Of a stretch of DNA of 64,000 bases, positions 543 to 29,653 are shown in pieces. Both the position numbers and the translations under genes were made by a program. Numbering within the stretch: the first letter of the stretch is position 1; each line of letters starts with the position of its first letter. The stretch comes from Arenimonas sp. (GTDB lineage Bacteria > Pseudomonadota > Gammaproteobacteria > Xanthomonadales > Xanthomonadaceae), in NCBI RefSeq assembly GCF_035312645.1, contig NZ_DATGBO010000042.1:27701-91700 (forward strand), given 5' to 3'. The notes under the pieces are model-generated. The model did not search any database. It was not told the DNA's origin and saw nothing but the letters and a program-made list of their open reading frames with translations.

Positions 543-1475
543 ATGATGTCTGCGGCACCGGTGCAATCCTCTCTTCCCCCGCTTTCCAATCTCGACCACC
601 TCGAGGCCGAGAGCCTGCATATCCTTCGCGAGGTGGCGGCATCGTTCCAGCGACCGGTGGTGCTGTATTCGATCGGCAAGGATTCGTCGGTGCTGCTGCA
701 CCTGCTGCGCAAGGCATTTGCGCCGGCGCGGCCACCGATGCCCTTGCTGCATGTCGATACGACGTGGAAGTTCAAGGAGATGATCGCGTTCCGCGATGCG
801 CTGGTGGCGCAGTACGGGCTGGATCTGCGTGTACACATCAACCCCGACGGTGTTCGCGACGGCATCGGCCCGTTCACGCACGGCGCGGCGGTGCACACCG
901 ACGTGATGAAGACGCAGGCGCTCAAGCAGGCGCTGGATGCCGGCCGCTACGATGCCGCGATCGGCGGGGCGCGCCGCGACGAGGAAAAATCCCGCGCCAA
1001 GGAACGCGTGTTCTCGTTCCGTTCCGCGCAGCACCGCTGGGATCCAAAAGCGCAGCGTCCCGAATTGTGGCAGCTGTACAACACGCAGGTGCATGCTGGT
1101 GAGAGCGTGCGGGTGTTTCCGCTGTCGAACTGGACCGAGCTCGATATCTGGCGTTACATCGCCCGCGAAAACATCCCGGTGGTACCGCTGTATTTCGCCG
1201 CGCAGCGCCCTGTGGTGGAGCGCGACGGCGGCCTGATTCTGGTCGATGACGAGCGCCTGCCGCTGCGTCCGGGCGAAGTGCCGACGCTCAAATCCGTACG
1301 TTTCCGCACGCTGGGCTGCTACCCGCTCACGGGCGCGATCGAGTCGCACGCCGATACGCTCGAAGCGATCATCGACGAGATGCAGCACGCGCGCAGCTCC
1401 GAGCGCCAGGGCCGGCTGATCGACCACGACCCCAGTGCATCGATGGAGAAGAAGAAGCAGGAGGGATATTTCTGA
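543..1475 (+). CDS. cysD: Sulfate adenylyltransferase subunit 2
   Basis: [59 protein letters not shown]; start placed at ATG 543, not the ORF-track start 339. Confidence 0.95.
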
Positions 1476-1608: not shown

Positions 1609-3528
1609 ATGACTGCCGCCACCGACACGATCCCGCGCCTGCGCTTCATCACCTGCGGCAGCGTCGATGATGGCAAGAGCACGCTGATCGGGCGTCTGCT
1701 CTACGAGACGGGCGCGCTGTTCGATGATCAGCTCACCGCGCTCGCCGCCGACAGCCGTCGCCATGGCACGCAGGGCGCGAACATCGACTACGCGCTGCTG
1801 CTCGACGGCCTCGCCGCCGAGCGCGAGCAGGGCATCACCATCGATGTCGCATATCGCTACTTCCACACCGCGCGGCGCAGCTTCATCGTCGCCGACTGCC
1901 CCGGCCACGAGCAGTACACGCGCAACATGGCCACCGGCGCCTCCACCGCCGACCTGGCCGTCGTGCTGGTTGATGCCCGCAAAGGCCTGCTCCCGCAGAC
2001 GCGCCGGCACAGTTATCTGGTGCATCTTTTCGGCATCCGCCAGATCGTGCTGGCGGTGAACAAGATGGATCAGGTCGGATATTCGCAGGAGGTATTCGAT
2101 CGCATCGTCGCCGAGTACCAACAACTCGCCACGACGCTGGGCATTGATCACATCACCGCGCTTCCCGTCTCCGGCCTGGTCGGCGACAACGTCATCGCCG
2201 CTTCGGCGAACACGCCCTGGTACGGCGGCCCGAGCCTGCTTGCGCATCTGGAGAGCGTCGATCTTGATGCCCCGCGCAGGAGCGGCTTTAGCCGCGATCC
2301 CGCCTACGCGAAGCAAGAGGACGAAGGAGCACGGTCGCGGCTGAAGCCGCTCCTACAAGACACGCCCTTCCGCCTGCCGGTGCAATGGGTCTGCCGCCCC
2401 GATCAGGATTTTCGTGGTTTCACTGGGCAGGTCGCCGCAGGCACGGTCGCGGTCGGCGACGCCGTCGTCGTGTTGCCGGCGGGCAAGACCGCCAACGTCA
2501 CCCGCCTGCAGGTAGGCGAACAAATCATCGAGCGCGCGCAGGCCGGGCAATCGATCCTGCTGTGCCTGGATGCCGAGATCGATGTCAGCCGCGGCGATGT
2601 CATCGCCGCCGTTGCTGATCCACCCGCCGTCGCCGATCAGTTCGCCGTGCACCTGCTTTGGCTGCACGATGCGCCGTTGCTGCCCGGGCGCCGCTATGCG
2701 CTCAAGCTCGGCGCGCGCACCGTCAACGCCCAGGTCACCGAGATCAAGCACAAGATCGATGTGAACACGCAGGAGCATCTGGCTGCGACGCGACTGGAGC
2801 TCAACGAGATCGCGTACTGCAACCTCAGCCTCGACCAGGCGATCGCGTTCGAGTCCTTTGCCGACAACAGAACGCTGGGCAGTTTCATCCTGATCGACAA
2901 GCAGACGCTGGCCACCGTTGCCGGTGGCACCATCGATTTCGCGCTGCGCCGCTCCGCCAACGTGCACTGGCAGGCGCTGGCGGTCGATCAGGCGGCGCGC
3001 GCGAAGATCAAGCAGCAGACGCCGCGCTGCCTGTGGTTCACCGGCCTGTCGGGTTCGGGCAAATCGACGATCGCCAATCTGGTGGAAAAGCGCCTGCTAG
3101 CCGCCGGCCAGCACACGTATCTGCTCGATGGCGACAACCTGCGCCACGGCCTCAACCGCGACCTGGGTTTCCGCGACGAGGATCGCGTCGAGAACATCCG
3201 ACGCGTGGCCGAAGTGGCCAGGCTCATGGTCGATGCCGGCCTGATCGTGATCGTCAGCTTCATCTCGCCGTTCAAGGACGAGCGCCGCATGGCGCGCAAC
3301 CTGTTCAAGGAAGGCGAGTTCATCGAGGTCTTCGTCGATACCCCTCTCGCAGACTGCGAGCGCCGCGATGTCAAAGGCCTCTACGCCAAGGCCCGCGCTG
3401 GCCAGATCCCCAACTTCACCGGCATCGACTCGCCCTACGAACCGCCCGAGCATGCCGAGCTGGTGCTCGATACCTTGCAGCACACGCCGCAGCAGCTTGC
3501 CGAGATCGTGGCCCAGAAAGCCCTGTAG
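1609..3528 (+). CDS. cysNC: Bifunctional sulfate adenylyltransferase subunit 1 / adenylylsulfate kinase (CysN/CysC fusion)
   Basis: [54 protein letters not shown]; C-terminal kinase [36 protein letters not shown]. Confidence 0.95.
2276..2356. repeat. REP doublet inserted in frame within cysNC
   Basis: GCAGGAGCGGCTTTAGCCGCGA (2276-2297) and TCGCGGCTGAAGCCGCTCCTAC (2335-2356); 81 bp = 27 codons; same class as intergenic 29588-29653. Confidence 0.88.
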
Positions 3529-3635
3529 GAGCGATGGCAATCGCGACTCCGCCGCACACCGGTCGCGATTGCCATCGCTCCTACAAAAAAATTGCGGGTT
3601 GATCGCGACAACGTCGCGGCTTACGCCGCTCCTAC
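3525..3635. repeat. GTAG-type REP doublet plus solo arm; left arm provides the cysNC stop codon
   Basis: GTAGGAGCGATGGCAATCGCGAC..GTCGCGATTGCCATCGCTCCTAC (3525-3584) and TCGCGGCTTACGCCGCTCCTAC (3614-3635). Confidence 0.88.
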
Positions 3636-29587: not shown

Positions 29588-29653
29588 GCAGGAGCGGCTT
29601 CAGCCGCGAAATTTCTGTCGGCAATGGCGAGTCGCGGCTGAAGCCGCTCCTAC
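29588..29653. repeat. REP doublet
   Basis: GCAGGAGCGGCTTCAGCCGCGA..TCGCGGCTGAAGCCGCTCCTAC. Confidence 0.88.

Follow-up and report, generated by a model that had tools for sequence, protein, structure and literature searches.

A REP doublet within the coding sequence of cysNC

The window analysed here is a stretch of 64,000 nucleotides from contig C42 of an Arenimonas sp. genome (G000, a metagenome-assembled genome, or MAG, of 2.83 Mb in 150 contigs). It contains cysNC, in which the CysN GTPase is fused to the adenosine 5'-phosphosulfate (APS) kinase CysC, and the reading frame of this gene hosts a pair of inverted repetitive extragenic palindromic (REP) sequences. Such a pair is known as a REP doublet forming a hairpin (REPIN). 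The features concerned, together with an intergenic doublet used for comparison, are as follows.

1609-3528, plus strand: cysNC open reading frame (ORF), 639 codons, CysN GTPase fused to the APS kinase CysC, host of the REP doublet
2276-2356, plus strand: REP doublet (REPIN) of 81 nt, in frame, coding for residues 223-250
2276-2298, plus strand: left REP arm GCAGGAGCGGCTTTAGCCGCGAT, identical to the REP word at 20 of 23 positions (3 mismatches), peptide (R)RSGFSRD
2299-2333, plus strand: doublet spacer, 35 nt between the 23-nt arms, coding for 11 residues (R)
2334-2356, minus strand: right REP arm GTAGGAGCGGCTTCAGCCGCGAC, identical to the REP word at 23 of 23 positions (0 mismatches), plus-strand peptide SRLKPLL(Q)
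29588-29653, no strand assigned: intergenic REP doublet of the TTCA-loop, GCAG/GTAG type, used for comparison

The doublet begins at the second base of codon 223, ends at the first base of codon 250 and contains no stop codon. Its inverted arms (2278-2297 and 2335-2354, 20 nt each) are 95% complementary, with 37 nt between them. At up to three mismatches the 23-nt REP word occurs six times in the window, compared to 0.01 occurrences expected by chance. The outer tetranucleotide of the right arm is GTAG and that of the left arm GCAG, which places the element in the GTAG superfamily of REPs; as an inverted pair of the same REP with a short spacer, folding into one long hairpin, it is also a REPIN. 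RNA spanning 2266-2366 was predicted to fold with an energy of -50.7 kcal/mol (z = -5.4 relative to shuffled sequences). Plus-strand scanning of the insert and the sequence beyond it revealed no intrinsic terminator, the hairpin having no U tail, and a search of the insert against Rfam returned no family, only sub-threshold matches to generic hairpins (miRNA). The first-pass annotation of this DNA had described inverted REP arms in a stop-free 81-nt segment of cysNC, and both this description and the peptide quoted with it proved exact. Its remark that the arms are nearly identical to those of the doublet at 29588-29653 also held, the right arm agreeing at 23 of 23 positions and the left arm differing at two. 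Because both arms lie in stop-free frames within the 81 nt, the doublet is predicted to be translated, as a loop of about 27 residues.

Position of the insert in the CysNC protein

The identity of the host protein is clear. An EF-Tu-like GTPase (GTP_EFTU, residues 12-196) is followed by domains II and III (GTP_EFTU_D2, 272-333; GTP-eEF1A_C, 344-442) and by a C-terminal APS kinase (APS_kinase, 473-621), all recognised by Pfam, and the gene stands beside cysD. Comparison with the solved CysN of P. syringae (1ZUN_B; E = 3.9e-128) aligned residues 10-223 and 252-442, and left nothing opposite residues 224-251. The insert is accordingly placed between GTP_EFTU and GTP_EFTU_D2, in what is predicted to be a linker or loop.

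The length of this linker, taken from the WY.G motif to the R.PVQ motif, is otherwise highly uniform: 90 nt in most of 29 relatives, and exactly 30 amino acids in 68 of 77 further orthologues. Deletion of positions 2276-2356 in silico brings the linker in the window to one residue below the usual length. Among 102 distinct full-length orthologues, all internal insertions of at least 10 amino acids fall in this linker, while other insertions or deletions do not exceed 7 amino acids. In insert-free orthologues, a coding palindrome for V-(D/E)-(L/I)-D, GTCGAnnTCGAC, is found just before the insertion point. As the earlier annotation had proposed to check by alignment, the insert has no counterpart in most orthologues. 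It had also proposed to model the structure: in an AlphaFold model built with 45 orthologues, the insert lies between a helix (210-216) and a strand (255-265), and the mean predicted local distance difference test (pLDDT) scores in the blocks covering residues 221-250 were 35, 28 and 29, all below 50, as compared to 81-92 in the preceding flank and 85 in the following one. Residues 221-250 are therefore modelled as a disordered loop between domains.

Every long linker checked at the DNA level contained REP-like or other hairpin-forming DNA, a check that was incomplete for P0005-P0008 and P0031 (available as protein only) and for L003 (partly resolved).

Authenticity of the insert and integrity of the gene

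The source assembly is a MAG in 150 contigs and REPs are repeats, so that a mis-join at a repeat could in principle have created the insert. The exact 639-amino-acid protein is, however, encoded on 7 contigs, and the 81 nt were identical in 4 of 4 contigs compared, which derive from four different samples (JGI and ENA). One of these, L116, displays 11 silent differences elsewhere in the gene and differs at 27 of 900 downstream bases, and therefore represents a different strain. The gene is in frame on both sides of the insert, and relatives assembled elsewhere carry the same kind of insert. The insert is not an assembly artefact; the probability that we would assign to such an origin is close to nil. 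The strain differences in cysNC, being synonymous only, might be taken as a sign of purifying selection. This argument was rejected, as the contigs had been found by an identical-protein look-up, which forces the nonsynonymous rate (dN) to be zero.

Another scenario is that cysNC is a decaying pseudogene, across which the frame has stayed open by chance. Nothing favours it directly, and only the presence of REPs before, in and at the stop codon of the gene could be cited in its support. Against it stand the 639 open codons with a G+C content at third positions (GC3) of 0.83, the completeness of all the Pfam domains, and the many columns that are invariant in the alignment of 45 orthologues. 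The gene adjoins cysD and is the sole cysN-like match of the genome (the next one listed is far weaker, with E = 6.0e-7 over residues 17-173), and the insert-bearing orthologues are all open, with no internal stops. We regard decay as very improbable, if not quite as remote as an assembly error, and the insert-bearing CysNC as most likely functional, judging by its sequence.

Our overall interpretation, which we hold to be likely, is that a GTAG-type REPIN resides in cysNC at the boundary of the CysN G domain and domain II, where it is read as a disordered surface loop of about 27 residues in an enzyme that most likely functions, and that it is a tolerated passenger. The doublet would have arrived by the same route as the other REPs of this genome, presumably mobilised by REP-associated tyrosine transposases (RAYTs), with single-stranded hairpin DNA as their substrate. 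It would have survived because the linker, of some 10 residues, is the only internal site of CysNC at which additional ones are tolerated; the insert would be a passenger that the protein tolerates rather than a part that it needs.

REP population and RAYT genes of the genome

A loose pattern retrieved 353 REPs from the genome, arranged as 127 doublets and 99 singlets, and in all the doublets the GTAG ends point outward. The octamer GTAGGAGC occurs 422 times, against approximately 86 expected. The dominant loop variants are ACGCAAGT (79 copies) and ATGGCAAT (62 copies). The TTYA-loop type, to which the cysNC element belongs, accounts for 14 copies, nine with GTAG and five with GCAG heads and none with GTGG. 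The asymmetric arrangement of GCAG on the left and GTAG on the right is found in three doublets of the genome, the pattern also occurring at C42:57288 and C150:251; the spacers of these two are unrelated.

Two genes encode RAYT-like proteins of the Y1_Tnp family (PF01797), at C148:58998-59507 and C20:14327-14902, and REPs flank each. The former is bracketed on both sides by ACGCAAGT-type REP pairs, the latter by REPs of the CTCAYGAG and GGCATGAC types. An HWH motif and the conserved tyrosine region were read by eye in both translations.

Repeated occupation of the CysN linker

The first-pass annotation had treated the insert as what was, by implication, a singular event. This did not hold, as the same linker has been filled repeatedly in relatives, in which the following inserts were found.

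G010: +54 nt, TTCA-loop REPIN with GTGG heads
G012, C17 copy: +75 nt, GGCATGAC-loop REPIN
G012, C258 copy: +117 nt, including a degenerate copy of the GGCATGAC REP
G009: +51 nt, 13-nt inverted repeat that is found at 5-6 other places in G009
G016: +54 nt, two GGA-loop hairpins, half of which recurs elsewhere
Arenimonas MAG (L087): +99 nt, GTAGGGGCG-type REPIN

By their sequences, these inserts indicate that the CysN linker has been occupied repeatedly in related lineages, by at least five palindromic repeat families. A protein search added further orthologues from metagenomes, whose linkers read GSGFSRD..SRLKPL, RSGHDRD..SRPGPL or the like. Of its 120 hits, 17 had long linkers, a proportion that was not accepted as a frequency, since the search words had been drawn from the insert region. 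Two products of unusual build were also noted: P0002, a chimeric-looking protein of 597 amino acids, contains the insert with a single substitution (PARAKQ in place of PAYAKQ), and in P0003, a CysNC of 722 amino acids, part of the G domain is duplicated internally.

A possible homology of the two-hairpin insert of G016 to a 51-base two-hairpin element of G000 was considered and rejected, as local alignment scores were 10-17, compared to 77 between two copies of the 51-base element. The latter likewise has no sequence similarity to the cysNC REP doublet. In G009, the 13-nt inverted-repeat element is also present just downstream of the cysN gene (C63:3437-3484), similarly to the REP-flanked cysNC of the window. 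The G012 MAG contains two diverged cysNC copies (C17:18524-20425 and C258:257-2194), each with a different state of its REP-derived insert; the two could be paralogues, or could stem from a pair of strains merged in one bin.

One origin or several

The head and loop variants of each insert match the REP population of its own genome. G010 contains 18 TTYA-loop REPs with GTGG heads and nine with GTAG heads. G012 has no TTYA-loop REPs; it has about 30 copies of GTGGGAGCGGGCATGACC and close variants, and 44 GTGG-headed REPs in all. In a tree computed without the insert columns, G010 is nested among insert-free sequences. Three lines of evidence, namely the match of the inserts to the REPs of their own genomes, the nested position of G010 in the tree and the differing junctions, speak for several gains, as far as sequences can tell.

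An alternative scenario is that a REP entered the linker in the common ancestor of the G000, G012 and G010 clades, its type being later turned over by conversion or re-insertion, with clean excision, possibly by the transposase, in the lineages that are now insert-free. The tree lends this some support, as the sister group of G000 is the G012 clade, in which every member bears a REP-derived insert. The REP frame of P0014 and P0012 is that of G000 (RSGHDRD...SRPGPL as compared to RSGFSRD...SRLKPL), and the inserts of the sister clades persist in this linker across species, at saturated synonymous divergence; the nearest available relatives of G000 share approximately 75-77% protein identity with it and are near saturation at fourfold degenerate sites. 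The insert is also identical in every sampled G000 strain. However, the junctions are not the same: the insert follows VDLDAP in G000 and VDL in G010, and P0014 has a longer left flank. The loop types differ at 6 of the 8 central bases, and the insert-free L008, L009, L010, L012 and L035, which lie between the clades, would call for three or four exact losses. Together with the fit of each insert to the REP variants of its own genome, this renders a single old occupation rather doubtful, although it is the strongest of the competing explanations considered here.

These results also bear on the earlier proposal of a recent REPIN insertion tolerated in the linker. Tolerance is well supported, since the REP type is the genome's own, the element is in frame in the short linker of domains I and II, and the gene appears intact. 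The word "recent" is not: the insert is the same in all strains sampled, its spacer is unique, the available close relatives include none with an empty linker, and sister clades carry REP-derived inserts that have persisted across species.

Passenger or maintained hairpin

Several observations do not sit well with a mere passenger brought in by the resident REP machinery, and weigh against our interpretation. A BLAST search of the whole genome with the spacer (2299-2333) revealed no further match exceeding 13 nt, and hence no master copy. With the spacer present only once, the genome shows no direct trace of recent copying, and the cysNC element does not share with any other copy an arm-plus-spacer unit, by which replication of a doublet is recognised. 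In the assembly, which is 95.8% complete, neither RAYT-like gene is flanked by REPs of the TTYA-loop variant. In the G010 clade, where the insert has been inherited across species, the identity of the arms to those of G010 is 0.84-0.98, compared to 0.55-0.84 at fourfold degenerate sites of the same genes; in the subclade of G010, P0004, P0010 and P0011, the identity of the spacer (0.84-1.00) likewise exceeds that of fourfold sites (0.59-0.84). P0013 displays complementary changes in both arms, CTTG/CAAG, where the others have TTCA/TGAA. Among the free REPs of G010, this CTTG/CAAG variant is represented as well.

One possible explanation is that selection preserves the hairpin for its nucleic-acid structure within the coding region, the peptide being a by-product. 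As RNA, it could make ribosomes pause where the domains meet, shield the mRNA upstream of it, or influence how much of the N-terminal part is made relative to the C-terminal part; as DNA, it could be bound by a REP protein or by gyrase. The first-pass annotation had likewise suggested that the hairpin could influence how the cysC half is translated or decays. The high stability of the predicted fold is in line with this, as is the conservation of the G010-clade arms beyond that of fourfold sites. Moreover, in eight sequences pairing is retained in 94.3% of the arm cells, four pairs have changed on both sides, and the covariation score of 0.115 (0.077 in shuffled alignments) was reached by only 1 of 500 shuffles; the peptide varies while the palindrome persists. 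On the other hand, the sample consists of these eight sequences only, most orthologues have no insert at all, and the site is held in different lineages by repeat families of unrelated sequence. The palindrome has decayed in P0037, P0016 and the C258 copy of G012, a terminator-like tail is absent, and gene conversion or re-insertion from the many REP copies would also account for the conservation of the arms. Selection on the hairpin is in our judgement unlikely, and a degree less probable than a single old occupation of the linker.

The behaviour of the arms, as reconstructed from their sequences, nevertheless differs from that of a purely neutral passenger, and points to a hairpin that is under selection or to arms that are homogenised with REP copies elsewhere. 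We read the insert as a probable tolerated passenger, the arms of which would be kept alike by conversion against resident REPs, by re-insertion from them, or by some selection on the hairpin. In its broadest form, the idea would be that REPINs lying in frame at domain boundaries are more than passengers and are retained for their nucleic-acid structure, for example as hairpins that make the ribosome pause once a domain has emerged or that influence mRNA decay. It would account for palindromes that outlast synonymous sites, with complementary double changes, while the peptide drifts; this generalisation seems to us slightly more improbable still than its application to cysNC.

Other in-frame REPs of the genome

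REP segments in frame were also found in other high-GC3 ORFs of G000, namely those of an IcmF-like MeaB-mutase fusion (three elements), MetH, MetG, an E2 acyltransferase, DsbD and GspB. All lie between Pfam domains or in a loop, and encode peptides such as VGATQVA..ATRVAPT. The in-frame singlets and doublets of the IcmF-like fusion, MetH, MetG, the E2 acyltransferase and DsbD, all outside the window, were located as follows.

C18:21904-22526: in-frame REP singlets or doublets
C47:9987-10045: in-frame REP singlet or doublet
C115:690-757: in-frame REP singlet or doublet
C148:16323-16344: in-frame REP singlet or doublet
C13:9348-9369: in-frame REP singlet or doublet

The cysNC insert is one case of a lineage-wide habit, in which REP-rich Lysobacterales keep in-frame palindromic repeats in the inter-domain linkers of housekeeping enzymes. 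The MetG linkers of relatives (L138, L139 and L140, the MetG loci of G002, G003 and G014) contain REP-coded stretches of other families, VGAPSGAKAL..APEGAPT and VGGTSVP..GTEVPPT, which makes the MetG linker a second recurrent landing site.

Relation to known repeats and significance

GTAG REP monomers and dimers have been described inside known genes, the dimers coding for 20-30 residues, and a location in flexible linkers or loops was proposed for them (Di Nocera, De Gregorio and Rocco 2013, BMC Genomics 14:522; PMC3733652). Peptides in the table of that report are nearly identical to the present insert, for instance GSGFSRDAGGTEIADKSAP (GSGFSRD...) in P. mendocina, and the hosts include the Xanthomonadales X. 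oryzae and S. maltophilia. An intragenic REP is therefore not the exception that the first-pass annotation, in which REPs were held to be normally extragenic, would suggest: this genome has several more in frame, and such cases are published (PMC3733652). In the available part of the same report, cysN and cysNC are absent from the table, the emphasis being on DNA repair and replication genes, and neither the re-occupation of one linker by several families across a clade nor the conservation of arms above synonymous sites is reported (PMC3733652).

Rickettsia palindromic elements (RPEs) are in-frame repeats in genes that are still functional, to whose products they add a surface peptide (Ogata et al. 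2000, as cited in PMC3733652). The cysNC element resembles them as a palindromic repeat in frame within a coding gene: its length is a multiple of three, it is stop-free, and it resides in a conserved gene, most orthologues of which lack it. RPEs differ in being longer, in residing in an obligate intracellular alphaproteobacterium and in not being GTAG REPs. To our knowledge, no dedicated transposase is known for them. The cysNC element, in contrast, is a REPIN of the ordinary kind, in a free-living gammaproteobacterium whose genome contains RAYT genes.

REPINs consist of two inverted REPs and a short spacer, which together form one long hairpin; they number dozens to hundreds per genome, are accompanied by single-copy RAYT genes flanked by REPs, and persist vertically for long (Bertels and Rainey 2011, PLoS Genet 7:e1002132; PMC3116915). 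Classical REPINs are extragenic and share a spacer within the family (PMC3116915), whereas the cysNC copy is intragenic, with a unique spacer and no RAYT of its loop variant found.

The kind of event is thus already described, in intragenic GTAG REP dimers and in RPEs, and what deserves follow-up is that several repeat families have used a single linker and that the palindrome persists. A REP doublet can apparently be absorbed by an enzyme of core metabolism that keeps its function, and across the Lysobacterales no fewer than five families of palindromic repeats have landed in the CysN linker. These form a natural series for asking whether the recurrence reflects a target preference of the mobilising enzyme or selection for a permissive site, and whether the hairpin itself is maintained. 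For annotation, peptides of the GSGFSRD..SRLKPL and VGA..APT kinds in the linkers of MetG, MetH, IcmF, E2 and CysN should be treated as repeat-derived and not as new motifs. The CysN linker may also offer a permissive site for engineered insertions.

Repeats around cysNC and the cysD-cysNC junction

The following features flank cysNC.

543-1475, plus strand: cysD, PAPS_reduct family, partner subunit (open frame 339-1475)
1497-1554 (1497-1518 and 1533-1554), no strand assigned: two head-to-head REPs of another loop variant, ATGTAAAT/ATGGAAAT, within the cysD-cysNC spacer
3525-3584, no strand assigned: REP doublet of the ATGGCAAT variant, abutting cysNC

A called gene of 310 amino acids with PF01507 occupies the position matching cysD in L113-L115. 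The gap between cysD and cysNC in the window is 133 nt (1476-1608), whereas the two genes overlap by one base in 9 of 10 related loci fetched (L117-L123, L125 and L126); the contig of the tenth, L124, begins too near cysNC to show cysD. Translational coupling of cysD and cysNC may have been lost in this genome.

REPs thus lie before cysNC, inside it and at its stop codon. The stop codon TAG (3526-3528) is the TAG within the GTAG head of the doublet at 3525-3584, and the C-terminus of CysNC is for this reason set by a repeat.

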